A stretch of 35,979 nt of DNA, from the NCBI GenBank assembly GCA_016218785.1, contig JACRCY010000056.1:1-35979 (forward strand). Reading direction: 5' to 3'. This document shows positions 5,880 to 35,979 of the stretch, piece after piece; positions within the stretch are counted from its first letter, which is position 1, and each line of letters opens with the position of its first letter. Origin of the DNA: Deltaproteobacteria bacterium (GTDB lineage: Bacteria; Myxococcota_A; Polyangia; JACRCY01). Below the pieces are notes generated by a model. It was not told the DNA's origin. It searched no databases and saw only the letters and a list, made by a program, of their open reading frames with translations. The translations under genes were made by a program, and so were the position numbers.

Positions 5880-7379
5880 TCACTCCGCGGCGGCGTCGGC
5901 GAGCCACCTCTGGACCGCGCCCAGCACCGCCTCGGTCTTCGGCGTCAGCGTGCCGCCATGGGAGAGGGCGAACTCCCCGGCGCGCCGGTAGTGGGGGCGG
6001 CCGTCCTGGAACGGCTGGATGACCACCTGCCCGCGGCGCTCGTGCTGCCCGGCGTCCTCGAACTCGACCACCACGTCCTGCAGCGAGGGCCGCACCTCCA
6101 CCTTGCGGGAGCGCTCGAGCCGTTCGATGAGGGGCTGCAGGACCGCCTGCTGCTCGCGCGAGAACAGCGGCCCGCTGTCCTCCTCCCGGGGGTAGAGGAT
6201 CGAGTAGACCTCCTTGCGCGCGCACTGGTACATCACCTTGTCGGGGACGAACTCGTAGTCCTGATCGAAGCAGGCGATCAGGTAGTCCGGCACCAGGGCG
6301 AGGTTGCAGACGCTGCCGAGCGCGAAGACGGAGGTGCCGACCCGCAGCGAGTTCGCACCGCTCGCGAGCCGCTTGAACACGTCCCAGTGGGGCTGCACCG
6401 CGCGGTCGAACTCGGGCGAGAAGAAGCCCACGGCCTCGACGGTGTTGCCGTGGGGGTAGACCGCGTAGCCCGCCTGCGCCGCCGCCGCCGCCATCCCGGC
6501 GCCGGTCTCCTCGAGGTATCGCTCCATGGTCGCGACCCGGTCGGGCGACGGCGCCGCCCCACCGTCCGCGAAGTAGTTGGCGTCGAGGAGGTTGACGATG
6601 ACCGAGTCGGGCCGGATCTCCATCAGGGCGCGGAAGTTCTCGAGGAACTGCGCGGCCGTCTCGTCGCGCAGGCCGAGCACCAGGTCCAGGTTGCAGTGGA
6701 TCCCGCGCGCCTGGGCGGAGCGCACGCGCCGGGCGAGGCGCCCGGGCTCGATCGCGAACATGGCGCTCGACCGGCGGGTGACGGGCTGCAGCGTCTGCAC
6801 GCCCATGCTGATCCGCGGGATCCCGAACTCCGCGAGCACGTCGAGGGTGGCGTCGTGGGCCGTCGGCACCGACATCTCGAAGGTGTTCACCGGGTTCTCG
6901 GCGCGCACCTCGAAGCGCTCGTGGAAGCGGGTGAAGAGGCGGCGCAGCTGCGCGGGGGAGAGGATGGAGGGGGTGCCGCCGCCCACGGAGAAGTAGCGGA
7001 TCGGCGTGTCGTGGAAGAGGGGCGCGAAGAAGTCCATCTGCGCGCAGACGAAGTCCACGAAGCGGTCGAGGAAGTTGCGCCCGTGCGCGAGCTTGAGGCG
7101 GAAGCAGCGGCAGAAGCTGCACGTGTGGGTGCAGAAGGGCACGTGGAAGTAGATGCCCACCGGGTAGTCGCTCGCCACGCCCGGGGTGGCGAGCTGGCGG
7201 CGCCACAGCTCGGCGAGCTGCGCCGGGGTGTAGCGGCCGTGCCGGTCGCCCCACGGCGGATCGTAGACGTCGAAGTCGACGAAGCACGGCCGGTCCAGGA
7301 TCCCCAGGTGCCCGGCCAGCCTCCAGCCATCGAGGAGCTGGCTCGGGCGCCGCCGCGGGACCGTGTCGCGGAGCCTCAT
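5880..7379 (-). CDS. HemN/HemW-like radical SAM protein with a C-terminal shared accessory domain
   Basis: YFHVPFCTHTCSFCRCF and SVGGGTPS, hallmark motifs of the HemN-like family. ATG 7379 overlaps the upstream stop (ATGA). The rest of track ORF 5880..7958 is Arg/Pro-rich and overlaps the U32 gene. The last 86 aa (5883-6140) are one copy of the shared domain. Confidence 0.85.
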   Translation of the reverse strand: MRLRDTVPRRRPSQLLDGWRLAGHLGILDRPCFVDFDVYDPPWGDRHGRYTPAQLAELWRRQLATPGVASDYPVGIYFHVPFCTHTCSFCRCFRLKLAHGRNFLDRFVDFVCAQMDFFAPLFHDTPIRYFSVGGGTPSILSPAQLRRLFTRFHERFEVRAENPVNTFEMSVPTAHDATLDVLAEFGIPRISMGVQTLQPVTRRSSAMFAIEPGRLARRVRSAQARGIHCNLDLVLGLRDETAAQFLENFRALMEIRPDSVIVNLLDANYFADGGAAPSPDRVATMERYLEETGAGMAAAAAQAGYAVYPHGNTVEAVGFFSPEFDRAVQPHWDVFKRLASGANSLRVGTSVFALGSVCNLALVPDYLIACFDQDYEFVPDKVMYQCARKEVYSILYPREEDSGPLFSREQQAVLQPLIERLERSRKVEVRPSLQDVVVEFEDAGQHERRGQVVIQPFQDGRPHYRRAGEFALSHGGTLTPKTEAVLGAVQRWLADAAAE

Positions 7380-8506: not shown

Positions 8507-8516
8507 GCCGCTCCGC

Positions 8517-9878
8517 CTAGCCGCGCACCTCGTACGACTGGCCCCCGGCCCCGGCGGCAGCCACGATCTCGGCGCGGCGCAGCTCGTTGCTCATCCGCTC
8601 GACCAGGTTGACCAGCCCACGGAAGAACAGGAAGGGGCGTTCCTCGAGGACATGCGTGAAGTAGGAGGGGAACCCCAGCTCCAGCACCGCGGCCCGGATC
8701 GCGCGTGGGGGGTAGCCGATGCTGTTGGTCACGAGCAGGTCGCAGCGGCCCTGACCGACGAGCGCCATGGTGTCCCGCTCGAGGGCCCGTTGGGTCGGGT
8801 CGATCACCACGCCTGCCTCGCCGATCCGTGCGAGCAGCTCGCGCGCGTGCACCCGGCGGCAAAGCACGAAATGGCGCTCGAGCCGCAGGCCCAGCTCCTC
8901 GGCCACCGGCTCGAAGGCGAGGGCGAGGTGGGGATCGCCCACGAAGACGAGCGTGCGGTGCAGCAGGTAGTGGGGCACCGCCCACTCGATCTTGGGCACC
9001 GCGTGCTGCAGCTCGGCGTCGGTCACGGCCGCGAGGCGGCCGCCCCGCCCGAGCGCCTCGGCGACCTGCGCGAGCCACCGCTCGCTGCCGTGGAGCCCGA
9101 GGGGGAGGCCGGTCTCGACGAGCGGCACCTGGAGGCGCTCCGCCAGGATCCGGGCCGCGTCCCGCGCGTAGGGCAGCGAGACGATGGCCGACGCGTGGCG
9201 CACCGCGCGCAGGTCGGCCACCGAGCCACCCGAGAGCCACACCGAGCCCAGGCGCAGGCCGAGCGCCGCCAGCAGCCGCCGCAGCTCGGCGAGGTTGCCG
9301 CGGTGGTCACCCTCGGCCCGGTCCATGAGGTAGCCGACCACGGCCACGTTGCCGCCTTTCGGCTTGTGACCGTCGAGGTCGATGACGCGCGCGAGCACCT
9401 TGAGCGTGTCGGCGAAGCCGTCGAGCCAGTCGCCGGTGAGCCCGTTGCCCGGCACGTTCACGACCGGCTTCCCGATCTCGAGGCTCACGGGGCGCGTCAG
9501 CCGGTCGTAGTCGACGCCGGTGATGGTGGCCATGGGCATCGAGGTCACGAAGACGGCCCCGGCCCCCGAGTACGAGGCCAGCTCCTTGAGCATCCCTCCG
9601 ACCTGGTCGTCGCGGGCGGCGACGATCTTCCAGGGGTGGAGGTCGGTGTTGGCCACGCGGTGGATGCCGTCGACGCTGGTCAGCGTGGAGAACCAGTCGT
9701 GGTTGCTCTGGAGGTACTGGGTCTTGAGGTGGGCGCAGTCGGGCGCGTCGACCAGGAGGTACGCGTCGCTGATCGCGTTGACCGCGAGGTAGCAGCCGAT
9801 CGTGAACGAGAGCGAGACGCGGCCCGAGTAGTCCACCTCGGTCGTGGGGGCCGCCATCGGGTTCTGGGGGGCGCTCAC
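8517..9878 (-). CDS. nitrogenase component-1-like subunit (NifK/NifN/BchB-type)
   Basis: Oxidoreductase-nitrogenase architecture: LVDAPDCAHLKTQY, TDL....V...DDQVGGMLKEL, AVFVTSMPMATITGVDYD, VAVVGY and three Rossmann-like segments. GTG 9878 overlaps the upstream stop (GTGA). Alternative starts are ATG 9857 or the track start 9989, which would overlap the previous gene by 115 nt. Confidence 0.75.
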   Translation of the reverse strand: MSAPQNPMAAPTTEVDYSGRVSLSFTIGCYLAVNAISDAYLLVDAPDCAHLKTQYLQSNHDWFSTLTSVDGIHRVANTDLHPWKIVAARDDQVGGMLKELASYSGAGAVFVTSMPMATITGVDYDRLTRPVSLEIGKPVVNVPGNGLTGDWLDGFADTLKVLARVIDLDGHKPKGGNVAVVGYLMDRAEGDHRGNLAELRRLLAALGLRLGSVWLSGGSVADLRAVRHASAIVSLPYARDAARILAERLQVPLVETGLPLGLHGSERWLAQVAEALGRGGRLAAVTDAELQHAVPKIEWAVPHYLLHRTLVFVGDPHLALAFEPVAEELGLRLERHFVLCRRVHARELLARIGEAGVVIDPTQRALERDTMALVGQGRCDLLVTNSIGYPPRAIRAAVLELGFPSYFTHVLEERPFLFFRGLVNLVERMSNELRRAEIVAAAGAGGQSYEVRG

Positions 9879-11812
9879 GACCGCCGCTCCCTGGCCGGGC
9901 GCGGCGCCCTGGCCGGCCGTGGGGCCTGCGCCGGCCGCGCGGTGCCCGGCAGGAACCGGTGGTAGCGCCGGAAGAGAGGCAGCCGGCACACCTCGAGCAG
10001 GCGCTCGGCCGTGCGCAGCGCTCCCTCGACGCCCTTCTCGAACTCCTGGAGGTTGAACTGCGCCTTGCCGGCGGCGCCGAGGCGATGGTCGCCGACGTAC
10101 TCGGAGAAGACCGCGGCGAAGGTCCCCTCGGCGAGGAGCTTCCCCAGGCGGTCACGGTCCAGGAACGCCTTGATGCGGTGGCGCGCGGGCTCGGCGAGAA
10201 GCGCGTTCACCTGGGTGGCGGCCTGGCGCGCGGTCCCGCGGTCGGTCACGCGGATGAGCACGTCGAGCCCGAACCCCAGCTCCTCGCACATGGCGAGCAG
10301 CGGCACCCCCCAGGTGGCCGCCGGGTCGCAGAGGCGGTGCACCTCCTCGGAGCCGATGACGAACCCCAGGCGGTACCCGGCGGCCTCCCGGCGCAGCGCC
10401 TCCCACCGCTCCTGGTGCGGCGCCAGGCAGCGCGCCACGACCGCGCCCGTGTCGGCCTTGACCCCGGCCGCCTCGGCCACCGCCTCGAGCCACCGGCGGG
10501 TGCCGGCGAGCCCGTACGGGGCGGGGGGCTCGATGGAGCGGATGCCGGAGTCGAACAGGAGCTGGTCATAGAGGTTCTGCCACAGCGCGTTCGGGTAGAG
10601 CACGTGCAGCGGCGCGTGGGGCAGCTGCGGGATCACCGAGAAGTTCATCTGCGGGATGAACACGGCGTTCACGCGCAGACCGAGATCGCCGAGCAGGCCC
10701 GAGAGCTCGTCCAGGGCCGCGTCGCGTGCGAAGCCGATGAGGTTCACGGCGCGCGGGTCGGCCTTCCCCGCGAGCGCCGCCTCGGCCGCCTGCCGCTGCC
10801 GGACCAGCACCTCGCGGAACACCCCGAGGCTCGACTGAGGAGTGGTGGTCAGGTAGAAGAACGGCCGCTTCGTCCGGCCGCGGTAGCGCCTGACCACCGA
10901 TTCGACGTCCTCGCCCGTGACGAAGGGGACGCAGGTGCAGGAGAGGAACAACATGTTGTCGACGCCGCGCTCCATGACGTGGTCGAGCACGGTGGTGAGC
11001 TTGTCGAGCCCTCCCATGACCACGTCGCGCTCCCCGAGGTCGGTGGTGACCATCTGGTGCCGCTCGGGCGCGGGCGCCGCGGTGGGCGGCGCCGCGGCCG
11101 GGGAGGGCTTGCCGGCGGGCGCCGGGGGCACCCTGCCGATCCGCCGGAGGCGGTCGAGCCAAGGGTAGTAGACCTTGTCCACCATGGGGACGGCGGTGTG
11201 CGGCGTCACTTGGAGGCAGTCGCGGTCGCAGTGCTGGATGAAGCTGCACCGCTCGAAGATGTCGAGGGAGTCGAGCCGGCCCCGCGCCGTCTCCGCGACG
11301 GCGAAGAACTGGTACCACATGTCCTCGGAGGCCCAGGTGCTGAGCAGCGACTGCCGGTCGTAGGCGGCCTGGTCTTCGGGGTTGCCGCGCGGCAGGCGGT
11401 CGCGCACGGGGTCCACGTCGGTGTCCGCGGCGACGAGCGCCGCGAGGTCCTCGATGGTCCGGCTCTCGAAGCGCGTGAGGCCCACCGCGGCGAGCTTGAC
11501 CTCGAGGTCGGGCCACATGGCCGGGCCGCGGTAGTACAGGATCAGGTGGTCGCTCCGGCACAGGCTCGGCTTGTCGACCTGGTACCGGTCGAGGAAGAAC
11601 GTGACGACGTGGTCTTCGGCGCCGTCCACCTCGACCTCGAGGTGGTCGACCACCCAGCCGACCGCCCCCACCCGGGTCTCGCCCGGGCCGGCCTCGGGGT
11701 CGAGGTTGAGCAGGCGCGCGAACTCGGCGCGGGTGCGGGGTCCGCCCGCGAGGGTCCTGCCCTGCAGCCGCCCCCGGTCTGCGCCTTGCTCGCAGGCCGT
11801 CTGGCGGCTCAC
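9875..11812 (-). CDS. nitrogenase component-1-like subunit (NifD/NifE/BchN-type) with an N-terminal shared accessory domain
   Basis: CSFIQHCDRDC, TTDLGERDVVMGGLDKL, NMLFLSCTCVPFVTGEDVESV and VNLIGF. A Pro/Ala-rich insertion (PPAPAGKPSPAAAPPTAAPAP) is present. GTG 11812 overlaps the NifH-like stop (GTGA). This start is supported by homology of residues ~28-116 (11465-11731) to the shared domain; an internal ATG at 11518 would cut that domain. Confidence 0.72.
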   Translation of the reverse strand: MSRQTACEQGADRGRLQGRTLAGGPRTRAEFARLLNLDPEAGPGETRVGAVGWVVDHLEVEVDGAEDHVVTFFLDRYQVDKPSLCRSDHLILYYRGPAMWPDLEVKLAAVGLTRFESRTIEDLAALVAADTDVDPVRDRLPRGNPEDQAAYDRQSLLSTWASEDMWYQFFAVAETARGRLDSLDIFERCSFIQHCDRDCLQVTPHTAVPMVDKVYYPWLDRLRRIGRVPPAPAGKPSPAAAPPTAAPAPERHQMVTTDLGERDVVMGGLDKLTTVLDHVMERGVDNMLFLSCTCVPFVTGEDVESVVRRYRGRTKRPFFYLTTTPQSSLGVFREVLVRQRQAAEAALAGKADPRAVNLIGFARDAALDELSGLLGDLGLRVNAVFIPQMNFSVIPQLPHAPLHVLYPNALWQNLYDQLLFDSGIRSIEPPAPYGLAGTRRWLEAVAEAAGVKADTGAVVARCLAPHQERWEALRREAAGYRLGFVIGSEEVHRLCDPAATWGVPLLAMCEELGFGLDVLIRVTDRGTARQAATQVNALLAEPARHRIKAFLDRDRLGKLLAEGTFAAVFSEYVGDHRLGAAGKAQFNLQEFEKGVEGALRTAERLLEVCRLPLFRRYHRFLPGTARPAQAPRPARAPRPARERRS

Positions 11813-12630
11813 GCGCGGCCCTGCAAGAAGGCGAAGAACTCGTCGTCGGTCATGGTCTTGGGCGGCCCTATCGTGCTGGGGTCGAGGGCGAGGGCCTCGT
11901 CGGCGAGCGAGCGCACCGACCGGGCGAAGACCGAATCGGGGGCCCACTCGACGACGGTGCGGCGTTCCTTCTCGGCGGCGATCACGTCCGGGTCGTGCGG
12001 CAGGAATTGCGCGATCCGCGTCCCCAGCCGCGCCGCGAACCGCGCGAGCAGGTCGCGGTCCGTGTCGGGGAGGCACGAGTTGGCGATGATCCCGCCGAGC
12101 ACCACGCCGTTCGCGGCGTAGCGGCGGACGGCCCGCGTGATGTTGTTCGCCGCGTACAGCGACATGGGCTGCTCCGACACCACGATGTAGACCTTGCGCG
12201 CGAACCCGAGGCGGAGCGGCGCGGCGAAGCCGCCGCACACCACGTCACCGAGGACGTCGAAGACGACCACGTCGTAGATGCCGTTGGAGAGCACCCCCTG
12301 CTCGTCGAGGAACTCGATGGTCCGCGCCACGCCGCGGCCGGCGCAGCCGGTGCCCGGATCGGGGCCGCCGGCCTCGACGCAGTCGAGCCCGTGCCGGCCG
12401 CGGTTGATGATGGTCGCCACCGAGAGCGAGTCGGGGTCCTGGCCGATGAGGTCCATGACCGTCGCCAGGCGCCCCGAGTCGATCAACCTGATCGCGGAGT
12501 CGCGCTTGGGGTCGCAGCCCACGTGGAGCACGCGCTTCCCCGCCATGCCGTAGCACGCGCTGAGGTTGGTGGCGATCACCGACTTGCCGATGCCACCCTT
12601 GCCGTAGATCGCGATCTGTTCCACGTTCAC
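11809..12630 (-). CDS. NifH/BchL/CfbC-family ATPase (nitrogenase-like Fe protein)
   Basis: P-loop IYGKGGIGKS and switch I CDPKRDS. Both 4Fe-4S ligand contexts are present (GTGCAGRGV and FDVLGDVVCGGFA), followed by YIVVSEQPMSLYAANNI. GTG start. Confidence 0.92.
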   Translation of the reverse strand: MNVEQIAIYGKGGIGKSVIATNLSACYGMAGKRVLHVGCDPKRDSAIRLIDSGRLATVMDLIGQDPDSLSVATIINRGRHGLDCVEAGGPDPGTGCAGRGVARTIEFLDEQGVLSNGIYDVVVFDVLGDVVCGGFAAPLRLGFARKVYIVVSEQPMSLYAANNITRAVRRYAANGVVLGGIIANSCLPDTDRDLLARFAARLGTRIAQFLPHDPDVIAAEKERRTVVEWAPDSVFARSVRSLADEALALDPSTIGPPKTMTDDEFFAFLQGRA

Positions 12631-14439: not shown

Positions 14440-15783
14440 ATGGCTGCACGTGCGCCGCGCAGGACGCGCCCCCGGGGGGGCCCGCGCTGGCTGCAGGCGC
14501 TCGTCGAGGAGCTCCGGTGCGCGAGCGCCCCAGCCCGCTCGGCGTCCGCCATCGGCGGGGTGCTCAAGGTGGAGCTCTCCGGGCCCGCCGAGCTGACGGT
14601 CGAGGTCAAGCCGATCGAGCCGGGCCGCGAGTACTTCTGCCAGACCGCTCGCTTCGGTGTGAGCTACTGCGGGTCCCGCAACCTGACGCCTCCCCAGGAG
14701 GCGGCCCTGGGCCGCTTCACGGAGGTGCTGCGGCGCGTGGAGGCCGAGCTGCCGGAGGTCCTCGAGGCGGCCGTGGGCGTCGGGGCACCGGGTGAGCGCG
14801 CCGCGGGCGACGCGCCCGCGCACACGGTGGAGTACTCGCAGAGCGCGAGCGGCGACGAGCGGTCGTGCGAGCTGCTCCTCCGGCTGACCTCGCGCTGCAA
14901 CCAGGACTGCCCCTTCTGCTCGGCGCCGCCGCCCCACGCCGAGCCCACGCTCATGGCGGCGCTGACGTTCCTCGACGGGGTGCTTCCGCGGCTGCCCCGG
15001 CCCATGGTGACGCTCACCGGCGGCGAGCCCACGATCTGGCCGCACCTGCGCGAGCTGGTCGAGCGTCTCCTCGGGCGGCCGGACACCCCGCGCGTGAGGG
15101 TCCAGACCAACGCCGTCGCGTTTGCCGACCCGGGCGCGCTCGATGGCTGGCCCCGCTCCGACCGCCTCTCCTTCTTCGTGTCGTTCCATGCGGCGGAGGC
15201 CCGCCTGTACGACCACATCACCGGGAGCACCGGTCACCTCGAGCGCGCGGTCGCGGGAACCCGGAACCTCGCGCAGACCGGCTGCCCGGTCGTGCTCAAC
15301 CTGGTCGCCACCCGCTTCAACCTCGATCACGTGCTCGACTGGGTGCGCGCCGTGCCCGAGCTGTTCCCCGCACCGGGCACCCCTACGATCCACTTCTCGA
15401 TTGCCATGTGCCCGGAGCACCGGCCGGGCGCGCTCGACTGCCTCGTGCGCTACACCGACCTAGCCCCGCGGCTCCAGGCGGCCGCCGCGCTCGCCGCGAG
15501 GCTCGGCGTCGACTGCGAGCCCCTGCTGGCCTCGTCGCACGCCGCCATCCCGCCGTGCCTCCTCGACGAGGAGTACCGGGTGCGGGGGGGCTCGTGCGGC
15601 GCGGGCCGGGGCGCCCTGCCGGTGCAGCGCCGCGACGAGGTCGGGATCGAGGACCTCCGCAAGCCCTGGATCAAGGCGCGGACCTGTGCACGCTGCACCG
15701 AGGACCCCTTCTGCCTCGGGCTGCCGCGGCCCTACGTGGCCCGCTTCGGCCTGGGGGAGCTGCGACCCATCGAGCGGACCTGA
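14440..15783 (+). CDS. radical SAM protein with an N-terminal shared accessory domain and a CxxCx5C tail
   Basis: RLTSRCNQDCPFCSA and LTGGEPTIWP. C-terminal CARCTEDPFCLGLPRPYVARFGLGELRPIE. Residues 17-101 (14488-14742) are a copy of the shared domain. Confidence 0.85.
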   Translation: MAARAPRRTRPRGGPRWLQALVEELRCASAPARSASAIGGVLKVELSGPAELTVEVKPIEPGREYFCQTARFGVSYCGSRNLTPPQEAALGRFTEVLRRVEAELPEVLEAAVGVGAPGERAAGDAPAHTVEYSQSASGDERSCELLLRLTSRCNQDCPFCSAPPPHAEPTLMAALTFLDGVLPRLPRPMVTLTGGEPTIWPHLRELVERLLGRPDTPRVRVQTNAVAFADPGALDGWPRSDRLSFFVSFHAAEARLYDHITGSTGHLERAVAGTRNLAQTGCPVVLNLVATRFNLDHVLDWVRAVPELFPAPGTPTIHFSIAMCPEHRPGALDCLVRYTDLAPRLQAAAALAARLGVDCEPLLASSHAAIPPCLLDEEYRVRGGSCGAGRGALPVQRRDEVGIEDLRKPWIKARTCARCTEDPFCLGLPRPYVARFGLGELRPIERT

Positions 15784-18441: not shown

Positions 18442-20061
18442 GTGAAGCGGCACCCGCTGCGCAACTCGCTCGCCACGCTGATCGAGGACGGTCGGGCGCT
18501 CGTGGTGGAGACGCCGGCGCACGAGCGGTACCCCGTCGACACGGGCGTCCTGTCGCTCACCTCGCGCTGCAATCTCGGCTGCGTGATGTGTCTCGAGCCC
18601 CGCGGGCCGGAGCCCGTCGATCTGCCGTTCGACGAGGCGAGGCGCTTCGTCGAGATCTTCGCCGGCCGCGTCCCCAGGATCTGGACCTGTGCCGGAGAGG
18701 CGCTCCTCTACCCCCGGTTCTTCGAGCTCGGCCGGGCGATCTTCCAGCGCGGCACGCGACTGGGCGTCGGGACCAACGGTCTCGTGCTCGGCAACCCGAA
18801 GGTCCTGCAGCGTTGCGCCGACGCCGGCGTCCGGTGGCTGCACGTCTCCTGCCACACGTCCCGGCCCGAGCGGTTCATGCGCTTGACGGCGACCACCGAC
18901 CGGCGGCGCTTCGACCAGTTTGTCCGCGGCCTCCGGAACGTCGACGAGTGGAACCGCGACCACGGGCCCGACCGCCGCTTCGACGTGCTCCTCCAGCTCG
19001 TGCTGATGAGGCCTTTCGACGAGGAGATCGAGGAGTACCTGGACTTCGTCGTCCGGCACCTCGCCCACAGCCCCCTGATGATCCGGGTCGAGCCGATGCA
19101 GCCCATGAACGCGGGCGCGGAGCACCCGGAGCTCCAGTACGACCTGGCCGAGCTGGGGCGGATCGTTCGCCACCTCATCGAGGAGCACTCGGGACGCGTC
19201 AAGCTCGAGTTCAAGTCCATCCCGCTCTGCATGCTGGACGGCTCCGAGGGGGCGTCCGAGGACCTCTGCACGCGGGCCGCGGGGACCGTGGTCGTGGGCA
19301 ACCTGGGACACCAGTCGGGCGGGCTGCAGCTGCAGTGCCCGATCGGCGACCCGGCGGACAGCGCCTGCGCCGCCACCTGCAGCGGGTGCCGCCTCGGGTG
19401 CCTCTGCCCCGGGGTCATGGACAACCCGGTGCCCGAGGGGTGCGCGTGGCCTCGGCCCGTCTCCGCGTCCGCGGTGCAGCTGCTGGCCCGACTGGGCCTC
19501 CGGACCGACTTCGCGGAGCGCAAGTTCTCGCTCGTGTACCCGCGCCGCTTCAACGCACCGGACCCGGAGGCACCAGAGCCGCCTGCTCGGCGGTCTCTCG
19601 CGGCGGCCCCGCCGCGCGAGGGCACGGTGGCGGGCCTGAGCGACGAGCAGCTCGGGCTGGGGCCCGAGTCGCCGCGGCGCTTCACGTCGGCCGAGATGGG
19701 CCGGATCGAGGGGATCGTCCGCGCCCTGGCGCGCGAGGACCTGGTGGCGGAGTCACGGGTCTCCCACCGGTTCGCGGCGCTCTCGCTCCGGACCGCGGAT
19801 CGCCCGTCGGGGCCCTGCCTCGTGATCCTCGAGCCCGCGCGAGCCTCGACCCCGTGCTGCTTCGCGGCGGCGGGGGTCGCGGTCCGCTACAACGGCCAGC
19901 TGACCCTAGCCCTGCAGGGGCACCTCGATCGTATCCGGCGCCTCCTCGCGTCGGCCGGCTTGCCGGGGCCGGCGGTCACCGGTCGCGAGGGCGCGGGCAC
20001 GCGCCGGGTGCGGAGCCGGCGCCAGCCTCGCGGGCGCGCCCGGTCGAGAGGCCGTTCCTAG
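18442..20061 (+). CDS. radical SAM protein with a Cys-rich twitch/SPASM-like region and a C-terminal shared accessory domain
   Basis: GTG 18442 preceded by GAGG. LSLTSRCNLGCVMCLEP. Cys cluster CPIGD..CAATCSGCRLGCLCPGV. Shared-domain copy at 19702-19959, then an Arg-rich tail. Confidence 0.82.
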   Translation: MKRHPLRNSLATLIEDGRALVVETPAHERYPVDTGVLSLTSRCNLGCVMCLEPRGPEPVDLPFDEARRFVEIFAGRVPRIWTCAGEALLYPRFFELGRAIFQRGTRLGVGTNGLVLGNPKVLQRCADAGVRWLHVSCHTSRPERFMRLTATTDRRRFDQFVRGLRNVDEWNRDHGPDRRFDVLLQLVLMRPFDEEIEEYLDFVVRHLAHSPLMIRVEPMQPMNAGAEHPELQYDLAELGRIVRHLIEEHSGRVKLEFKSIPLCMLDGSEGASEDLCTRAAGTVVVGNLGHQSGGLQLQCPIGDPADSACAATCSGCRLGCLCPGVMDNPVPEGCAWPRPVSASAVQLLARLGLRTDFAERKFSLVYPRRFNAPDPEAPEPPARRSLAAAPPREGTVAGLSDEQLGLGPESPRRFTSAEMGRIEGIVRALAREDLVAESRVSHRFAALSLRTADRPSGPCLVILEPARASTPCCFAAAGVAVRYNGQLTLALQGHLDRIRRLLASAGLPGPAVTGREGAGTRRVRSRRQPRGRARSRGRS

Positions 20062-25257: not shown

Positions 25258-26982
25258 ATGGCGATGCACGCCCGCCGGGTCGCTCTCCTTTGTCAGAGCC
25301 CGCTCGAGGACGAGGGGATCTCGAGCATCAGCTACGCCGCGTACCGGCTGCAGGCCGCGCTCCTCGCGTCACCACGCCTCGCCGGCCTCGAGGTGCGTCT
25401 GATCGAGCTGCCCAGCGGCGACGTCGAGGGGTTCGTGTCGCAGGTCGAGGCCTTCGACCCGGACATCGTGGGGGCGTCGGTGTACGTCTGGTCGTTTCCG
25501 GCCCTGATCGAGGTGGCACGGCGGCTCCGGCGTGCGCGCCCCGAGACGCTGCTCGTCCTGGGGGGCCCGTCGGCCCGGCCGGAGATGTTCGACGCGCCGC
25601 GCTTCGCCGACGCGCGCTCCTGCGTCGACGCCATGGTCGTCGGCGAGGGGGAGGAGGTGGCGGTGGACATCGTCGCCATCGCCGGACGGCGGCGGGAGAA
25701 GCTCGCGGAGGTCGCCGGGCTCCTCCTCCCGGCCGCGAACGGCTGGCGGCCGACCGCGCCGCGGACGGAGCGCGCCCACCCCGATCACCTCCCGTCCCCG
25801 TACCAGATGGGGCTCGTGCCGCACGGCCGCAAGGGGAGGCTGGAGACCTTCCGCGGCTGCCCCATCGGGTGCACCTTCTGCCAGGTCTCCAGCACCGACC
25901 CGATCTGCCGCGTCCACTCGAAGGAGCACCTGGTCCGGGAGCTCGGCGCGCTGCGCGCGTCGGAGCCCAACCGCGTCTTCCTCATCGACGCCGCCATCAA
26001 CCTCAGCCCGCAAGCCTTCAGGAACCTGCGCGACGCCGAGCGCGAGGTGGGCCTCTTCCAGGAGCAGGAGCTGCTGATGGAGGTCTTCCCGTCGCGCCTC
26101 ACCAGGGCGCACCTCGACTTCCTGCACCACATCCGCTCCTGCCGGATCGCCATCGGCATCCAGTCGTTCACCCCGTCGGCGCTGGCGTACCTGCGCCGCC
26201 CGTTCGACGAGAGGAAGTTCGAGCAGGTGGCCCGCGCCGTGGCGGGATTGGACGTGAGCCTCGAGCTGGTGATGGGCCTGCCGTTCGATGATCCACGCGC
26301 CTTCCTCGAGGGGGTGGATCGGTTGATCGACCGGCGCTTCTCGGTGCTGATCAGCCACTGCCTGGTGCTGCCCGACACGTTCCGGCGGCCCGGCATGCCG
26401 GAGGCCAACCTGCGCTTCGAGGAGGACACGCTGCGGATGATCTCGTGCGCCGGCTGGCCCGAGGAGACGCTCCGGGAGACGCGCGCCCGGCTGGACGACA
26501 GGGCCCGGGAGCTCGGCGGGCGGATCGCGGCCTTCTCCTGGGAGTTCTTCGCCCCATCGGGCGGGCACCGCGTGGCGCCGGCCGGCTCGCCGGGACGCGG
26601 GCAGCGCTCCGGGGAGGGCCCGCCACCGGGCGGCTCGTCCGGTAGCGTCGAGGCCCGTCCGCCGGGCGCCGTGGCCAGGCTCCCGCGGGCGCTCGAGCGC
26701 GCGCTGGAGGTCGCCGTCGAGCAGGCCAGCGGTGGCCAGTGGCGCCTCGACCGCGCCACGCTCGACGAGGAGGCGCTGGTGGCGAGGGTGAAGACGCCGG
26801 GGGGCGACCTGGTGGTGGAGGCCCGCCGGGCGCAGCCCGGCGCGCGGAGCTACCGCGAGCTGGACGGGGTGGCCTGGAGCTACCGGCTGGTCGGCGACGT
26901 GCCCGCGGAAGCCGTGCTCCGCCAGTTCGACCGGGTCATCGCCGAGCTGCGACTCCTCATGTCGCGGGTGCTCAAGCGCTAG
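25258..26982 (+). CDS. B12-binding-domain radical SAM protein (class B) with a C-terminal shared accessory domain
   Basis: N-terminal Rossmann/B12-like part (VALLCQSP..DIVGASVYVWSF..LLVLGGP..VVGEGE). ETFRGCPIGCTFCQV, then IGIQSFTPSALAYLRRP and LVMGLPFDD. Shared-domain copy at 26689-26979. ATG 25258 preceded by GGAG. Confidence 0.85.
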   Translation: MAMHARRVALLCQSPLEDEGISSISYAAYRLQAALLASPRLAGLEVRLIELPSGDVEGFVSQVEAFDPDIVGASVYVWSFPALIEVARRLRRARPETLLVLGGPSARPEMFDAPRFADARSCVDAMVVGEGEEVAVDIVAIAGRRREKLAEVAGLLLPAANGWRPTAPRTERAHPDHLPSPYQMGLVPHGRKGRLETFRGCPIGCTFCQVSSTDPICRVHSKEHLVRELGALRASEPNRVFLIDAAINLSPQAFRNLRDAEREVGLFQEQELLMEVFPSRLTRAHLDFLHHIRSCRIAIGIQSFTPSALAYLRRPFDERKFEQVARAVAGLDVSLELVMGLPFDDPRAFLEGVDRLIDRRFSVLISHCLVLPDTFRRPGMPEANLRFEEDTLRMISCAGWPEETLRETRARLDDRARELGGRIAAFSWEFFAPSGGHRVAPAGSPGRGQRSGEGPPPGGSSGSVEARPPGAVARLPRALERALEVAVEQASGGQWRLDRATLDEEALVARVKTPGGDLVVEARRAQPGARSYRELDGVAWSYRLVGDVPAEAVLRQFDRVIAELRLLMSRVLKR

Positions 26983-28242: not shown

Positions 28243-29453
28243 TTCGGCACCTCGAGGACGGCGAACCCCTGGCCGCCGAGCGGCGAGGGCAGGCTGATGT
28301 CGATCCGCGAGCGGCACTCCGGGCGCTCGTGCTCGGCCTGGTTCTGCTGGAGGGACTCCATCACCCGGCGCCGGCGCTCCGCCTCCTCGTCGGTGAAGAC
28401 CCGCTTCAGCGTGGCGGCCTTCGTGTCGTCGTGCAGCTCGAACGGCAGCATCTGCACGTGGTCGAAGTACTCGAGCATCCTCATCGACGCTTCGAAGTCC
28501 GCCGCCGTCTCGGTCGGGAAGCAGATGATGAGGTCGGTCTCGATCCGCAGGGCGGGCGCCACCTGCCGCAGCTCCTTGATGACCTTGATCACGTCCGCGA
28601 TCTTGTACTTCCGATTCATGCTGCGCAGCACGCTGTCGCTGCCGGACTGGACGGGCAGGCAGAGCCAGCTCACCCGGCCCGACTCGAAGGTGGCCTTGAG
28701 CCGATCGAAGTACCTGATGAACCGCGAGGGCTCGAAGCCCTTGAACCCGACGATGAGATCCGATCGGCCCGCGAACGCCTTCGTGAACAGCGCGTCGAAG
28801 AGATCCGTCACGTCGCAGCCCAGGTCGTGGCCGTACGAGCCGACGTCCGAGGCCCCGATGACGAAGTTGGTGTACCCCTGGCGCAGCCCCTCCTGGCACT
28901 GGGACACGATCTCGTCGAGCGGCACGCTCTTGACCGTGGCGAACACGCTCTTGCCGATGCAGAACGCGCAGTGGTTCAGACACCCCGCCGCGACCATGAC
29001 GTTGAACGGCCGGGTGGCCGCGGCCCGGCCGGCGCCGAGTGCCTTCACCTCGCGATTGTCCTCGACGGTGGCCCCGGACGGGATGCGGCGCAGCGGGACG
29101 GTGGGGTGGAAGATCGCGTCGAACTCGTCGGCCTTCTCCAGCGGGATGTAGACCAGGTTGGGCGCCTCGACCGCGTCCCGCTTCGCGAAGCAGCAGGTGA
29201 CGACGACCTGCTTCGATGGATAGCGCTGCGCGAAGTACTCGGCCGCGGCCTTCACCGACTGCCGCCACTCCGGGAGCGTGCTGCAGGCGACGATGATGAT
29301 GTAGTCCGCCGCCTCGATGTCCCGGAACTCCCACTTGTTCTGCACCACGTAGTTGTGGAGCCGCGTGGCGAGGGACAGGTTGATCGGGCACCCCGGCTCC
29401 CTGGTGCACATGAACACGCCGGGGGTCTTGGTGCTACGGGCGCGCTTCTTCAC
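28239..29453 (-). CDS. methylthiotransferase-like radical SAM protein (no TRAM domain), paralog 1
   Basis: FMCTREPGCPINL, IVACST and VTCCFA. rSAM motif VAAGCLNHCAFCIG, then PVQSGSDSVLRSMNRKY and LIICFPTETAADF. Collinear with its neighbour at both protein and DNA level. GTG 29453 overlaps the upstream gene by 20 nt; ATG 29411 is an alternative start. Confidence 0.8.
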   Translation of the reverse strand: MKKRARSTKTPGVFMCTREPGCPINLSLATRLHNYVVQNKWEFRDIEAADYIIIVACSTLPEWRQSVKAAAEYFAQRYPSKQVVVTCCFAKRDAVEAPNLVYIPLEKADEFDAIFHPTVPLRRIPSGATVEDNREVKALGAGRAAATRPFNVMVAAGCLNHCAFCIGKSVFATVKSVPLDEIVSQCQEGLRQGYTNFVIGASDVGSYGHDLGCDVTDLFDALFTKAFAGRSDLIVGFKGFEPSRFIRYFDRLKATFESGRVSWLCLPVQSGSDSVLRSMNRKYKIADVIKVIKELRQVAPALRIETDLIICFPTETAADFEASMRMLEYFDHVQMLPFELHDDTKAATLKRVFTDEEAERRRRVMESLQQNQAEHERPECRSRIDISLPSPLGGQGFAVLEVPK

Positions 29454-30599: not shown

Positions 30600-32015
30600 T
30601 CAGGCGCGCGGGCGCTGGAGCCAGCCGACGAGGTTCGCGATGAGCCGGGCGATCCGCGGCGTCAGCGCCGTCCCCGCATACGACAGGCCGAGGTTCCCAC
30701 TCCGCGCGTAGCAGCTCGCGGCCCGGTCGACCTTGGCCACGGTGACGCGGGAGGTGCCGTCGGGCTGGGCGTCGTCCGGGAAGACGAGCTCCAGACGGTC
30801 GCCGGCCCACCGCAGGTCGATACCCTTGCCGGCGAGGGCTTCCGCCATGCCGAGCAGGCGCGCACCGTCGGGGTCGCCGGCGTCGGGTTTCGTCCCTGCC
30901 GCGGCGGGAGGCGGGGCCGCGCCGCCCGCGAGCGAACCGTCCGGGACCGGCACCGCGTCCCGCGCAGGGGCCTGGAAGCGAGCCGCCGCCGCGAGATCGT
31001 CGAGCGTGACCCGTCGGGGCCGCGAGCGGCCCGGCTTCGCGCGCGCGAGGTCGTCGCGGAAGTAGCACAGGTACGTGCTGTCGCACAGGAGGGGGGTGTC
31101 CTTCAAGGCTCGGGCGCGCTCGGCGACGACCTCCGCGGGGTCGCCCCCCTCGACCCAGTCCAGCACCGTCCGCACGAGTCTCAAGCCGCCGAGCCGGAGC
31201 GCGGTCGAGTACTCCCGCCCCGGCACCTTGACGTAGCCGACGCCCGCGGCCTTCAGGCCGGCGAGGGCGCACACGCCGCACGGGCCGTTGGGGATGCCCT
31301 GGGGCGAGACCGTGCCGCCGGGATGGTCGAGGAGGCCCATGAGGTGCCGGTAGGCCCTCCAGTTCTCCTCCCACCCCGCAACCGGCTCCGGCCCGACCTC
31401 CGGGCGCCAGTCCATCTGACACATCGGCCCGAAAGGTCGGTGCACGTTCAGGCAGAGGCCCTCCTCGAAGCCGCACCCGTCGTTGATGACGAAGACTTCG
31501 TAGTCCACGGGCACGCCCGCCGCGCACAGGCGGGCTATCTGCCGGGTCGACAGGTACCGCGGGAGGATCACGCGCTGGATGCCGATATCGGCGAAGAAGG
31601 CGGCGGCCTCGGAGTTGTAGCAGGTGGCCACGCTGGAGAGGTGGAGGTCGACGGCTATGCCGGCGCGCCGGATCGCGAGGATCAGCGCGAGGTCGGTGAC
31701 GATCAGGGCGCGAGCGCCCGCGGCCACCAGCGTACCGGCCAGCTCCACCAGGGTCGGGATCAGCGCCGGGGCGTAGGCATGCTCGTTGAGCGTCACGGCC
31801 ACCGGGACGTTCTTCGCGGCGGCGCGCTTCACGACGCCCGCGAGCTCGGCGAGGTCGGCGAAGTTGGCGCCCGGCTCGTAGCGACGGTTCAGCCGGGATC
31901 GCCCGAGCCCGTCCACGAAGGCCTCGGGCACGACGCCGCAGAAGAGCTCGTCGGCTCCGGCCTCGATCAGGGGCTCCACCTCCTGCGCCGTCGCGAGGCC
32001 GGTCACGATCTTCAT
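30600..32015 (-). CDS. peptidase U32 family protein, UbiU-like, with a C-terminal shared accessory domain
   Basis: MKIVTGLATAQEVEPLIEAGADELFCG, VTLNEHAY, LIVTDLALI, LHLSSVATCYN and RVILPRYLS. U32 signature core EVFVINDGCGFEEGLCLNV (C-x4-G-x-C), plus further Cys (PMC, GPCGVC). ATG 32015 overlaps the upstream stop (ATGA). Shared-domain copy at 30603-30863. Confidence 0.78.
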   Translation of the reverse strand: MKIVTGLATAQEVEPLIEAGADELFCGVVPEAFVDGLGRSRLNRRYEPGANFADLAELAGVVKRAAAKNVPVAVTLNEHAYAPALIPTLVELAGTLVAAGARALIVTDLALILAIRRAGIAVDLHLSSVATCYNSEAAAFFADIGIQRVILPRYLSTRQIARLCAAGVPVDYEVFVINDGCGFEEGLCLNVHRPFGPMCQMDWRPEVGPEPVAGWEENWRAYRHLMGLLDHPGGTVSPQGIPNGPCGVCALAGLKAAGVGYVKVPGREYSTALRLGGLRLVRTVLDWVEGGDPAEVVAERARALKDTPLLCDSTYLCYFRDDLARAKPGRSRPRRVTLDDLAAAARFQAPARDAVPVPDGSLAGGAAPPPAAAGTKPDAGDPDGARLLGMAEALAGKGIDLRWAGDRLELVFPDDAQPDGTSRVTVAKVDRAASCYARSGNLGLSYAGTALTPRIARLIANLVGWLQRPRA

Positions 32016-32899
32016 GGGCGACCCACCGGGCCAGGGCGGAGGAACGAACGGTCGACGTCCGTGTCGAGGTCGTAGACGAGCCGGGCGACGTCCGGCCGGG
32101 CCAGCGGCGGTCCGCCGACACCGCGCGCCGCGAAGAAGGTGTTCTCCCGGAGGAGGAGCGGAGCGCGGCACGCGGGGTGGTGGAGCCTCACGGCGCGGCC
32201 GCGACAGGGGGCCCGACAGGGCCGGTCGGGGCGGAACTTCTCCTCCACCGGGCGGCCCAGCCCGCTCAACAGGCACAGGCTCCCGCTGGCCACGAACGCG
32301 AAGGGAAGATGCAGCGCCAGGGCGATGGGGGACGCATCGTCGGGCAGGCAGTCGGCTTCGACCAGATCGACTCCCCAGCGGGCGAGCAGGTCCAAGGTCT
32401 CCGGGGACATGGCGCCCGACATCGCGAGCTCCCCGACCCGGGGGTCCTTCTTCTGCCGACGGAGGCATCGCCCCAGGATCGGTCTCAGGCCCGGAAACCG
32501 TCGGTGCACCAGCCGCAGCGTGCCCCAGTCGTTGGCCACCACCTCGGCGCCCTGCACGCCCGAGAGCGCGCGCAGCACGATCGCGAGGCGAGCGAGGGCC
32601 TCTTCCGTCACCGGCGGGGTCCGCAGCGTGACGGGGACGCGGCGCCGCCGGGCCAGGGCCAGGACGGCGGTCCACTGCGCCCGGCTCGGGATCAGGTGCC
32701 GACAGAACTCGGCCCCCGCATAGAGCCTCCTGAACAGCACCGACTCGCCGCTGGCGAGGGTCGTCGACCAGCCGCCGTCCACCGGCCGCAGGGAGCCCGC
32801 GGCCTCGGCGGCCCTGATCTCCCGGACCCCCGCGCCCACCGCCCACTCCGGTCCCGGAGTGGCGGCCGTGCCGGCGACCGGCTGCGAGACGGCGGCCAT
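32012..32899 (-). CDS. U32-related protein, UbiV-like
   Basis: RLYAGAEFCRH (compare UbiV 'vYlGe.vC'), EVVANDWGTLRL and LHLPFAFVASGSLCLL-x-PCRAPC (C-x18-C-x3-C). This resembles the four-Cys Fe-S pattern of E. coli UbiV. ATG 32899 lies 8 nt after the upstream stop. The Ser/Thr/Ala-rich head of the track ORF was rejected. Confidence 0.55.
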   Translation of the reverse strand: MAAVSQPVAGTAATPGPEWAVGAGVREIRAAEAAGSLRPVDGGWSTTLASGESVLFRRLYAGAEFCRHLIPSRAQWTAVLALARRRRVPVTLRTPPVTEEALARLAIVLRALSGVQGAEVVANDWGTLRLVHRRFPGLRPILGRCLRRQKKDPRVGELAMSGAMSPETLDLLARWGVDLVEADCLPDDASPIALALHLPFAFVASGSLCLLSGLGRPVEEKFRPDRPCRAPCRGRAVRLHHPACRAPLLLRENTFFAARGVGGPPLARPDVARLVYDLDTDVDRSFLRPGPVGRP

Positions 32900-34090: not shown

Positions 34091-35979
34091 ATGGTCCCGC
34101 GGAGATCGCAGCGGAGGGCGGGGCGGCTGCGGCAGGCGGCGACGAAGCGCCTGATGCTCATCGAGTTCTTCCCGGGCGCTCTGCGCCGGAACGAGAAGGG
34201 CATGCTCTTCCCGTTCCTCAAGGGCCTGGCCCAGGAGTGCGGGCACGAGGCGCTCCGGGTCTGCTTCGGGGGGACGCTGGCGCCGGCGGCCGAGGGCTAC
34301 GGCGGACGGATGCTGCGCGCCCGGCTGGCCGACGAGGACCTCCGGACGCTGGCCCGGCACCTGGACTCGTTCTGCCCCACCCACGTGGTGACCAGCGACC
34401 TGCTCGGCGCGCCCGTCAGCGCGCTCCTGGACGCCCGCACGCCGCCGCCCGAGCAGCTGGTGATGCCGACGGTGAGCGATCTGATCTTCGGATCCCCCGA
34501 GGCGACCGGCATGGCGCGGCCGCACGCGCTCATCTCCGCCGATCCCGACCGGCGCGACTACCTCGGCCGCGGTGCGTGGTTCCTCGACTGGCTGGGGGTG
34601 AAGGACCCCGTCCTCGCCCGACGTCACCTCGTCCCGCACGTCGCCCCCGACTACGCCGCGGTGATGGCCAACGCCGCGGCCCTGACGTCGGAGTCGCCCG
34701 TCAGCATCGTCAGCGGGGGGCTCTGCGGCAACCGGCGCGGCCTGGTGAAGAACCGCTGCTTCGCGGGCGTGGACCTGGGCCGGTTCCGGAGCCACCGTGG
34801 CTGCTCGTTCTGCATGAGCGCCACGATGCCACCCTACACGCCCTGGAGAGTCGACCCCCTGGCGCTGTGGGAGCGCCAGTTCCGCCGGATCCTCGAGACC
34901 GCCAGCCCGGGCGGGGAGACCCGGGGCATCTACGAGTTCTTCGACTACCGCGCCTTTCGGCGGATCGACGAGGTCGCGGCGCTCGTCCTCCGTCTCGGGC
35001 TGCCGCCGTCGGTGCTCATGTTCAATCCCCGGATCGACGAGGTGCTGCACGCGCGCGAGCGGCTGGAGCGGGTGCTGCCGGCGCTGGCCGGGGCGGGCCA
35101 CGAGGTCCGCATCCTCAGCATGGGGGTCGAGAACTTCTCGGAGACGGAGAACACGCGCCTCAACAAGGGGATCACGCTGGACCAGGTGGACGAGTTCCTG
35201 GCCCTGGCGCGGCGGTGGGAGGTCGAGTACCCGGGCGTCTTCATGCCCTTCAAGGCGGGCCGCGACGAGATCGAGCTGGGCTTCATCCTGTTCACGCCCT
35301 GGACCACGCCGGCGGACCTCCGGTTCAACCTGGAGTGCGCCGCGGCACGCCGCTTCTCCCCCACGGGCTACTGGCTGTACTCGACGCTCGACATCCAGGA
35401 GATGGAGCCCATGTACCGCCTGGCGCAGCAGGCCGGTGACCTCCTGGTCGAGCGCTTCCCCGATCGGGGGCAGTTCTACGGTGTCTTCCTCAACGAGACC
35501 GAGGTCGGCCACCTGATCCCTTGGCGATTCCGGGACCCGAAGGTCGCCGACTACTTCGCCATGGTCGTCCGCGTCTGCGCCGCCGAGCGCGAGGGCGAGG
35601 ACTGCGCCTTCTTCCGGGACGACCCCGAGTTCCCGCTGATCGAGAGACCGTACCGCGAGGCGAAGCGGCGGGCGAGGACCACGCCGCTCGAGGTCGCGCG
35701 CGCCCTGCTCGACGTCATGGAGGCGGCGCGGCCACCCTGCTCCCGGATGGCGCTGCTGCAGGAGGTGATCGCCCGCATCGCGGACGCGCCGCGGCCGGCG
35801 CCGGAGGCCCGCGCCGCCGCGCCGGCGCGCTCCCTCTCCCCGATCGCCGGGACCGTCGCGCGGGTGGTCGAACGGCTCGTCCGGGACGGCCCCGTGACCG
35901 TCCCGGGGGTGAAGCTCCGGGGGATCGAGGAGCTCGGTCCGCCGGACGAGCGGCGGATACGGCTGGCCCGGTCGCTCGC
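34091..35979 (+). CDS. radical-SAM-like protein with a non-canonical Cys motif (paralog of 15789..17489), 3'-truncated by window edge
   Basis: Not in the ORF track because the frame runs off the window. I translated it by hand: MVPRRSQRR..LMLIEFFPG..GGLCGNRRGLVKNRCFAGVDLGRFRSHRGCSFC..ILSMGVENFSETENTRLNKG..LGFILFTPWTTPADLRFNL.. The last ~45 aa (35843-35979) look like the start of another shared-domain copy. Confidence 0.6.
   Translation, partial: MVPRRSQRRAGRLRQAATKRLMLIEFFPGALRRNEKGMLFPFLKGLAQECGHEALRVCFGGTLAPAAEGYGGRMLRARLADEDLRTLARHLDSFCPTHVVTSDLLGAPVSALLDARTPPPEQLVMPTVSDLIFGSPEATGMARPHALISADPDRRDYLGRGAWFLDWLGVKDPVLARRHLVPHVAPDYAAVMANAAALTSESPVSIVSGGLCGNRRGLVKNRCFAGVDLGRFRSHRGCSFCMSATMPPYTPWRVDPLALWERQFRRILETASPGGETRGIYEFFDYRAFRRIDEVAALVLRLGLPPSVLMFNPRIDEVLHARERLERVLPALAGAGHEVRILSMGVENFSETENTRLNKGITLDQVDEFLALARRWEVEYPGVFMPFKAGRDEIELGFILFTPWTTPADLRFNLECAAARRFSPTGYWLYSTLDIQEMEPMYRLAQQAGDLLVERFPDRGQFYGVFLNETEVGHLIPWRFRDPKVADYFAMVVRVCAAEREGEDCAFFRDDPEFPLIERPYREAKRRARTTPLEVARALLDVMEAARPPCSRMALLQEVIARIADAPRPAPEARAAAPARSLSPIAGTVARVVERLVRDGPVTVPGVKLRGIEELGPPDERRIRLARSL

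Follow-up and report, generated by a model that had tools for sequence, protein, structure and literature searches.

The contig JACRCY010000056.1 of a Deltaproteobacteria bacterium (Polyangia; assembly GCA_016218785.1), which was analyzed over its whole length of 35,979 bp and is called the window below, raises the question of why radical S-adenosylmethionine (radical SAM, rSAM) proteins, a nitrogenase-like subunit and a U32 protein should share one small segment near their termini, and what this segment might do for its carriers. An original prediction, made from the sequence letters, had described it as an accessory module recurring seven times. Since plain lists of open reading frames (ORFs) are uninformative at the 72% G+C of this contig, genes were modeled from third-position G+C and frame analysis together with Pfam and NCBIfam matches, which gave 27 genes (G1-G27). 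The seven segments are homologous copies of one domain of ~85-95 residues, hereafter the module, of which six are complete and one is cut by the contig end (5883-35979).

One domain at seven places

The copies are listed with coordinates defined by a hidden Markov model (HMM) and with their leave-one-out results, for which each complete copy was scored against the HMM of the other five and 20,000 composition-matched shuffles served as decoys, counted when they reached or exceeded the score of the copy.

5886..6149, minus strand: copy 1, C-terminus of G7 (aa 411-498); 124 bits with the HMM; leave-one-out 36.8 bits, 0 of 20,000 decoys
11435..11722, minus strand: copy 2, N-terminus of G10 (aa 31-126); leave-one-out 10.1 bits, 5 of 20,000; 42.6 bits with the 101-sequence HMM
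14485..14754, plus strand: copy 3, N-terminus of G13 (aa 16-105); leave-one-out 26.1 bits, 0 of 20,000
19702..19962, plus strand: copy 4, near the C-terminus of G16 (aa 444-530); leave-one-out 13.4 bits, 1 of 20,000; 40.2 bits with the 101-sequence HMM
26695..26958, plus strand: copy 5, C-terminus of G20 (aa 499-586); leave-one-out 11.2 bits, 1 of 20,000; 44.7 bits with the 101-sequence HMM
30603..30863, minus strand: copy 6, C-terminus of G24 (aa 385-471); leave-one-out 21.1 bits, 0 of 20,000
35855..35977, plus strand: copy 7, C-terminus of G27, first ~41 residues only; 11.6 bits, above 5000 of 5000 shuffles

The six peptides quoted in the original prediction are present in the sequence at their given places, and the similarity claimed for them was borne out by the HMM comparisons among the segments, with 0, 0, 0, 1, 1 and 5 of 20,000 decoys scoring as high as the respective copy. 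When each segment was compared by phmmer with the 27 proteins, matches were reciprocal among the copies of G7, G13 and G24 (E of 5e-5 for G7/G13 and 3e-4 for G7/G24), and weaker top matches, which without exception fell where predicted, connected those of G16, G20 and G10. The probable seventh copy was scored against the HMM of the modules of G27 orthologs and is colinear with HMM positions 3-41; it is partial because the contig ends. The full-length ortholog of G27 (L029 4489-6495, 668 aa, 76% identical) contains a complete module at aa 600-660 (34.6 bits) and runs on as ...RRIRLSLSLGGLDLVVDLLEGDGPCFLRSRHFRVVYHQETP..., clearly a module, and a complete copy stands at the same place in the G27 orthologs of L029, L001, L002, L004, L005 and L012; orthologs in Elusimicrobia and one Myxococcales metagenome-assembled genome (MAG) likewise continue into a module. 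No eighth copy was found in the six-frame translation of the window with HMMs of 8, 17 and 101 copies. Early phmmer hints of extra copies in G14 (C-terminus), G25, G23 and G27 (N-terminus) were not confirmed by the 8-, 17- or 101-sequence HMMs.

Could the resemblance be due to chance similarity in composition, given a genome of 72% G+C, or could each segment be an ordinary part of its host family? Such a reading might draw on the low pairwise identities among the window copies on different hosts (19-31%) and on the enrichment of Ala, Arg, Gly and Pro that high G+C brings about. Against it stand the leave-one-out scores above nearly all decoys, the cross-matches at predicted positions and a confident single AlphaFold2 fold obtained from a mixed alignment. 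Moreover, closely similar copies occur on unrelated hosts, host paralogs and orthologs lacking the module exist, and the family models of the hosts do not cover it. The absence of a shared domain is thus so improbable that it is effectively excluded.

The module is accessory to its hosts, lies outside their catalytic folds, is independent of position and has been mobile among host families. The Pfam and NCBIfam catalytic matches of the hosts stop before the module or begin after it, and the module is attached at either terminus, often through Pro/Ala/Gly-rich linkers. The host paralogs G6, G8, G9, G14, G23 and G26 do not carry it, and no match was obtained with the HMM in the NifD-like orthologs of Elusimicrobia within the 20 kb seen. 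The original prediction of a mobile module was therefore correct in this respect, being supported by host relatives without the module, by family models that end before it, by its predicted ability to fold alone and by its shuffling between hosts. Its count of five superfamilies was too high: the window hosts belong to three, namely radical SAM (five hosts of different subclasses), nitrogenase component-1 and peptidase U32. Orthologs that keep the module are P0001 and L017 for G7, P0037 and P0084 for G20, and P0075, P0091, P0049, P0069 and the 685-aa protein of L031 for the NifD-like G10; the module of P0020 is 63% identical to the G16 copy and that of P0005 68% identical to the G24 copy.

Two details of the host genes may be recorded here. 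Past its module (19963-20061), G16 continues into an Arg-rich, strongly basic tail, RVRSRRQPRGRARSRGRS, and the other copies have no such tail. The start of G10 is somewhat uncertain: a GTG at 11812 agrees with the frame plot and has a 4-nt overlap with the stop codon of G11, but the G10 orthologs P0075 and P0091 start ~45 residues later, and a later start would remove the first module helix (11672-11812).

Fold, relatives and hosts of the module

AlphaFold2, run on an alignment of nine sequences (the six complete window copies and three database relatives), predicted the module with a pLDDT of 87.2 and a pTM of 0.75 as an alpha-beta5-alpha arrangement, in which an amphipathic N-terminal helix (H4-13) is followed by a five-stranded antiparallel sheet (E17-21, E26-31, E39-46, E55-57, E60-65) and a C-terminal helix (H70-88). 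In this model the module is an autonomously folding unit. Its signature reads P-x-[FY]...h-x-h-[S]-[YH]-x-G...L-[TS]-P, and among ~100 copies Tyr64 is conserved in 84%, Gly66 in 71%, Pro46 in 64% and an aromatic residue at position 54 in 78%, together with the L-[TS]-P opening the last helix and Leu83. Cys53 is found in 29% and Ser63 in 39%, and position 64 holds His, Phe or Trp instead of Tyr in 16% of the copies (His in G7). The conserved polar and aromatic positions are grouped on the hairpin formed by beta4 and beta5, and none of the nucleophiles is invariant, so that a candidate binding surface fits better than a catalytic or attachment site. In a comparison of the window with its sister cluster from another metagenome, the modules were 57-66% identical and the rest of each protein 63-84%, and the dN/dS values of 0.30-0.74 in the module compare with 0.32-0.56 in the catalytic or remaining parts, which indicates purifying, somewhat relaxed selection on the module.

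As in the original prediction, the module could not be placed in a known family. Neither a Pfam-A scan of 14 copies (hmmscan, E<=10), which gave only isolated chance matches to DUF1918, DUF4369 and NMB0537_N, nor NCBIfam, whose host matches lie in the catalytic parts, assigned it to a family; for P0001 and P0003, two fragments that bear the module, the precomputed Pfam annotation records nothing, although it already covers the recent family PF27806 (HxsD). A PDB sequence search with the module profile yielded nothing below E 0.04, and Foldseek with the module model nothing in PDB at E < 0.1. The best structural neighbors, at E 0.12-0.5, TM 0.44-0.49 and 8-14% identity, were the C-terminal domain (CTD) of AMPK-alpha, KA1 and the SOS2 C-terminus. 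Like the module, KA1 and the AMPK-alpha CTD are small two-layer alpha+beta terminal domains, and theirs mediate assembly or the binding of membranes or partners; they occur, however, in eukaryotic kinase contexts, and with a best E of 0.12 and TMq of 0.46-0.49 they fall short of TM > 0.5 and E < 1e-3, so that assignment to this fold was rejected and homology is not claimed. The domain family is thus previously undescribed and absent from Pfam, NCBIfam and PDB, the literature searched holds nothing on such a module, and the modeled fold is probably new or very divergent. The general kind, an accessory domain common to the enzymes of a biosynthetic cluster, is already known from docking domains and from the recognition elements (RREs) of ribosomally synthesized and post-translationally modified peptides (RiPPs).

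With RREs, the PqqD-like analogy already drawn in the original prediction, the module shares its size (RREs have ~85-90 residues), its attachment at either terminus, its occurrence on several superfamilies per cluster and frequently on rSAM enzymes, and its non-catalytic nature; the role presumed for it, bringing several tailoring enzymes to one substrate, is similar as well. RREs adopt a winged helix-turn-helix of beta3-alpha3 topology, in which a three-stranded sheet is followed by three helices. By contrast, the module is modeled as alpha-beta5-alpha, no precursor peptide was found in the window, and seven carriers per cluster lie far above the RRE norm. Membership of the family was rejected, given the differing topology and the fact that neither the 14 copies (E<=10) nor the full-length hosts matched PqqD (PF05402). 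Cohesin-dockerin scaffoldins and the docking domains of polyketide synthases and nonribosomal peptide synthetases likewise place short, linker-attached modules on many enzymes of one pathway, and a protein built entirely of tandem module copies (P0035, see below) resembles a scaffoldin. Here, however, the same domain, whose binding role is presumed, occurs on enzymes and array without a complementary pair, and the carriers are cytoplasmic Fe-S enzymes.

A distant relationship to HxsD, the product of G4, had been considered conceivable and did not hold up: hhalign of 101 modules against 120 HxsD homologs gave a probability of 0.35% (E 0.17), and the single-sequence comparison with G4 gave 0.04%. 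Both are small, non-catalytic alpha/beta accessories of rSAM proteins, similar in size and encoded in the same cluster. However, the LYW and LLNDYxLRE motifs of HxsD are absent from the module, and the AlphaFold2 model of HxsD (pLDDT 80) follows a different order of elements, beta-beta-alpha-beta-beta-long alpha (E7-10, E15-21, H27-36, E41-49, E52-59, H65-107). In E. coli, where HXS is an antiphage system, HxsD binds the rSAM protein HxsC and is required for HxsA maturation (PMC13128918). The ~100-residue N-domain of canonical HxsC was rejected as a module relative, as the two sequences compared, from Aeromonas (L026) and Novosphingobium (L027), had negative bit scores with the 101-sequence HMM; no canonical HxsC was found in the Patescibacteria HxsD loci examined. 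In Foldseek the HxsD model is similar to RNA polymerase subunits of the Rpb11/AC19 type and to the KEOPS subunit Pcc1, which binds Kae1 (E ~2e-3, probability 0.99); these neighbors differ from the weak KA1/AMPK matches of the module. In Polyangia loci HxsD-HxsB is directly followed by a carbamoyltransferase with a Kae1/TsaD-like N-domain (G19 in the window), and in Patescibacteria loci a TsaD gene lies near HxsD (the loci behind these comparisons being L019/L020 and L024/L025). By analogy, a Pcc1:Kae1-like pairing of HxsD with the carbamoyltransferase is possible.

An exhaustive HMMER search detected 99 proteins at E<=1e-3 among 1.84 billion representatives, and an HMM restricted to the module confirmed ~80 of them. 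Word-indexed searches with module profiles returned three fragments only, a poor yield because the prefilter is too insensitive for the module. The commonest hosts are G13-type rSAM proteins with an N-terminal module (~60), followed by G7-type (7), G16-type (5) and G10-type NifD-like proteins (5, some with two copies), G24-type U32 proteins (3), G20-type proteins (2) and MiaB-like proteins (2); further hosts are of G27/G14 type, several have no assigned type, and P0082 is a Trp-halogenase-like flavoprotein with two copies. In the Elusimicrobia loci, within the 20 kb seen, only G27-family paralogs bear the module. No convincing stand-alone module was found among the database matches; the candidates P0003, P0041, P0068, P0087, P0071 and L004 14129-14530 are compatible with longer genes broken off on short contigs or with split genes. 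The module is confined to group VI nitrogenase-like plus radical SAM clusters of Myxococcota and Elusimicrobia.

In a nearest-neighbor analysis the copies mostly grouped with those on the same type of host, a sign of old fusions that were passed on together with the host. Exchange was detected as well: the MiaB-like proteins P0036 and P0047 carry modules that share 51-54% identity with those of U32 type, the P0036 module being 54% identical to that of G24, and some G16-type hosts bear a G7-like module. Such close copies on unrelated hosts, together with the host paralogs and orthologs lacking the module, argue against its being a normal part of each host family.

A candidate docking handle

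The most likely role of the module, which we consider somewhat probable, is that of a common docking or recognition handle by which the carriers would be joined to a single partner or among themselves. As proposed by analogy, the module would bring its carrier enzymes to one shared partner, which could be the substrate carrier of the pathway, whether protein or peptide, or other proteins equipped with the module, and the tailoring enzymes would thereby act as one assembly on one intermediate. Function would then be analogous to that of RREs or scaffold/docking systems, with an unrelated fold.

That the carriers work together is indicated by natural fusions between them and by the compact cluster L031. 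The fusions are NifH-module-NifD (P0100), NifK-module-rSAM (P0024), G14-module-rSAM (P0014, P0034) and B12-rSAM-module-rSAM (P0070). In the cluster L031 (8001-16630, 62% G+C) only two proteins bear the module, one NifD-like and the other a G13-type rSAM, which suggests that these two form the conserved core pair. The docking role also gains indirect support from the fusions and from P0035, a scaffold-like relative made up of modules only (see below). Its genes encode, besides these two carriers, NifH, a 902-aa protein with a NifK-like C-terminal half and a second NifK-like protein.

The same evidence bears on a special case of docking, in which the modules bind each other, for instance by beta-sheet extension, and polymerize the enzymes into a metabolon with arrays as scaffolds and no separate partner. 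The restriction of the module in L031 to exactly two proteins of interacting type and the carrier fusions would agree with this, as would the hosts with two copies (P0049, P0056, P0069, P0082 and P0008) and the nature of the weak Foldseek neighbors (AMPK-alpha CTD, KA1, SOS2 C-terminus), which are protein-assembly domains. Additionally, P0035 (993 aa) consists of eight tandem, distant module repeats of ~124 residues joined by Pro/Ala linkers and contains no enzyme domain; its repeats matched the module in hhalign with 89.6% (E 1.9e-6), compared to 0.1% for a reversed control. However, an array protein is absent from both the window and the sister cluster, and 19-31% identity across the window hosts is low for a conserved self-interface. 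Homotypic assembly is thus rather unlikely.

The surroundings of P0035 are also relevant to the idea that the module is itself a substrate, being modified by maturase-type rSAM enzymes of the cluster (HxsB, HxsC-like) and gaining a cross-link, a radical site or a prosthetic group for its host in the manner of glycyl-radical, lipoyl or biotinyl domains. The P0035 gene lies between genes for an HxsC4-like rSAM and a tetratricopeptide repeat (TPR) protein, 34 nt downstream of the former, where canonical HXS loci have the repeat-bearing substrate HxsA; carrier domains typically occur in tandem arrays and fused to protein termini, the Tyr-x-Gly motif on the beta-hairpin is highly conserved, and HxsB, HxsD and HxsC4 flank the cluster. 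In contrast, none of the modifiable residues is invariant, Tyr64 being replaced in 16% and Cys53 and Ser63 being present in 29% and 39% of the copies, and many module-bearing clusters show no HxsB/D within reach. We therefore regard modification of the module as improbable.

Regarding the locus itself, L014 4962-11389, on a contig of 73% G+C, comprises the HxsC4-like rSAM, P0035 and TPR genes, which overlap or lie 34 nt apart, and the HxsC4-like rSAM has two weak module-like C-terminal regions. This three-gene set may be a minimal system that reveals the role of the module.

A further explanation is that Fe-S enzymes in need of reduction use the module to recruit a dedicated electron donor of low potential, for which the NifH-like ATPase G11 or a ferredoxin/flavodoxin would be candidates. 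All hosts are redox enzymes (rSAM, Fe-S U32, NifD-like, flavoprotein), and in P0100 the module stands directly between NifH and NifD. This is set against five rSAM enzymes of the same cluster (given as G5, G6, G21-23 and G26), which equally need reduction and have no module, and against the array protein, which offers no redox domain to serve. Moreover, nitrogenase-like D/K components dock their H partner directly, as in the NifH and BchL systems. Recruitment of a redox partner consequently appears very improbable.

Several points weigh against the docking handle as well. No partner was identified, and the window shows neither a gene for a precursor peptide nor one resembling HxsA: HxS repeats are absent from G1-G4, G14 and G25, the intergenic gaps are <250 bp, and a 46-aa ORF (25064-25204) is unconvincing. 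Of the 24 genes of the cluster, 17 have no module, among them those of five further rSAM enzymes, which demands explanation if the handle is viewed as obligatory. The lack of a significant structural neighbor leaves it without functional precedent, and the modeled structure is based on nine sequences only. Furthermore, the search profile A3 contained ~40 positions of a G13-specific linker, which inflated the scores of G13-type proteins, and P0045, with eight matching stretches in the list, is a false positive caused by coiled-coil repeats.

The docking handle admits a bolder extension, in which the module is a universal connector of new fold in an anaerobic multi-enzyme assembly line, its carriers, from at least four superfamilies (radical SAM, nitrogenase-like, U32 and flavoprotein), plugging into each other or into all-module scaffolds. 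This reading by analogy is doubtful.

The cluster and its meaning

The genes of the window, with Pfam PF00148/PF00142 matches for G9-G11, are as follows.

G1-G3: genes unrelated to the cluster, ahead of G4
2828-3346, plus strand: G4, HxsD (TIGR03976, 49.6 bits); no module
3346-4842, plus strand: G5, HxsB (TIGR03978, 527 bits); no module
4914-5873, minus strand: G6, HxsC4-like rSAM (NF038332, 325 bits); no module
5880-7379, minus strand: G7, HemN-like rSAM; module host
G8: U32 protein; no module
8517-9878, minus strand: G9, NifK/N-like; no module
9875-11812, minus strand: G10, NifD/E-like; module host
11809-12630, minus strand: G11, NifH
G12: esterase-like
14440-15783, plus strand: G13, HxsC-like rSAM; module host
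15789-17489: G14, no assigned family, paralog of G27; no module
G15: deacetylase-like
18373-20061, plus strand: G16, rSAM; module host
G17: GT2
G18: amidotransferase
G19: carbamoyltransferase
25201-26982, plus strand: G20, B12-binding rSAM; module host
26995-29453: G21 and G22, MiaB-like; no module
G23: rSAM; no module
30600-32015, minus strand: G24, UbiU-like U32; module host
32012-32899: G25, 295 aa, no assigned family
G26: rSAM; no module
34091 to beyond 35979, plus strand: G27, divergent rSAM-like, cut by the contig end; module host

Thirteen genes of the window are rSAM or rSAM-like. The sister cluster is spread over two contigs, L017 (HxsD through G10, 77-90% identity to the window) and L029 (G27 through G19, 60-84%), and matches the window from HxsD to G27, with nothing shared outside this range, including upstream of HxsD; the cluster therefore comprises G4-G27, ~33 kb, with HxsD, HxsB and the HxsC4-like rSAM (2828-5873) as its left border. 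The named closest relatives of HxsD are from MAGs of Polyangia (Myxococcota), and HxsD is conserved together with HxsB not only in the sister cluster but also in one locus of Elusimicrobia. The presence of HXS maturase genes inside a biosynthetic cluster that has no HxsA-like repeat protein suggests a different substrate.

Orthologs of G27, G9, G10, G11 and G19 lie side by side on groundwater Elusimicrobia MAG contigs, and G11 shares 42-54% identity with the NifH-like proteins of such loci. Judged by its Nif-like trio, its rSAM genes and this orthology, the window is assigned to the group VI nitrogenase-like (Nfl) plus radical SAM clusters. Loci of "group VI" nitrogenase paralogs co-occurring with many rSAM proteins were reported by Méheust et al. 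(2020), also from Myxococcales and Gracilibacteria, and tetrapyrrole reduction was conjectured (10.1101/765248); according to a 2026 review group VI has no characterized member (PMC13474568). Those loci have in common with the window the NifH/D/K-like genes and a large suite of rSAM proteins, including B12-binding and HemN-like ones, whereas a shared accessory domain, HxsD/HxsB and U32 and MiaB-like members are unmentioned in both papers, where a cofactor of tetrapyrrole type is conjectured (10.1101/765248, PMC13474568).

Further observations concern individual genes. G21 and G22 are tandem MiaB-like methylthiotransferase paralogs, ~50% identical to each other and both without module. The sister cluster additionally encodes an 840-aa rSAM protein and, at L029 10001-12649, an 882-aa protein with two Pfam Radical_SAM stretches, of which the C-terminal part is MiaB-like and followed by a U32-type module; gene content is thus fluid even between close relatives. 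The Cys-rich G25, a possible UbiV-like partner without family match, is translationally coupled to the UbiU-like G24 and 77% conserved in the sister cluster. The divergently oriented genes G19 and G20 are separated by a gap of ~200 bp with lower G+C (25008-25200), which is probably a promoter region; its only ORF is the unconvincing one of 46 aa, and a regulatory RNA upstream of the B12-rSAM gene was rejected, as the Rfam scan of the window gave no match. G14 and G27 (34091-35979) represent a divergent, unnamed rSAM-like family with a core of ~560 aa, a CxxC-type Cys motif and a Pfam Radical_SAM score under the gathering threshold; up to three adjacent paralogs occur in the Elusimicrobia loci (L001-L012), where this family is the chief carrier of the module.

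For this cluster type the module gives a concrete entry: carried by up to seven enzymes of one cluster, it is a ready experimental handle, and used as bait it should retrieve what the carriers share, be it a substrate carrier, a scaffold or each other. Moreover, it marks the genes of the pathway, its HMM is a specific probe for such clusters in metagenomes, and domain databases gain a new family with an apparently new or very divergent fold. If the docking role is true, enzymology would have a second, structurally unrelated solution to the problem solved by RREs, reaching past rSAM enzymes to nitrogenase-like and U32 proteins. Should the module even prove to be a universal connector, it would represent, for metabolons of Fe-S enzymes, what the cohesin-dockerin principle is elsewhere, though in cytoplasmic and homotypic form, and would be the physical key to the product of the group VI nitrogenase-like clusters.

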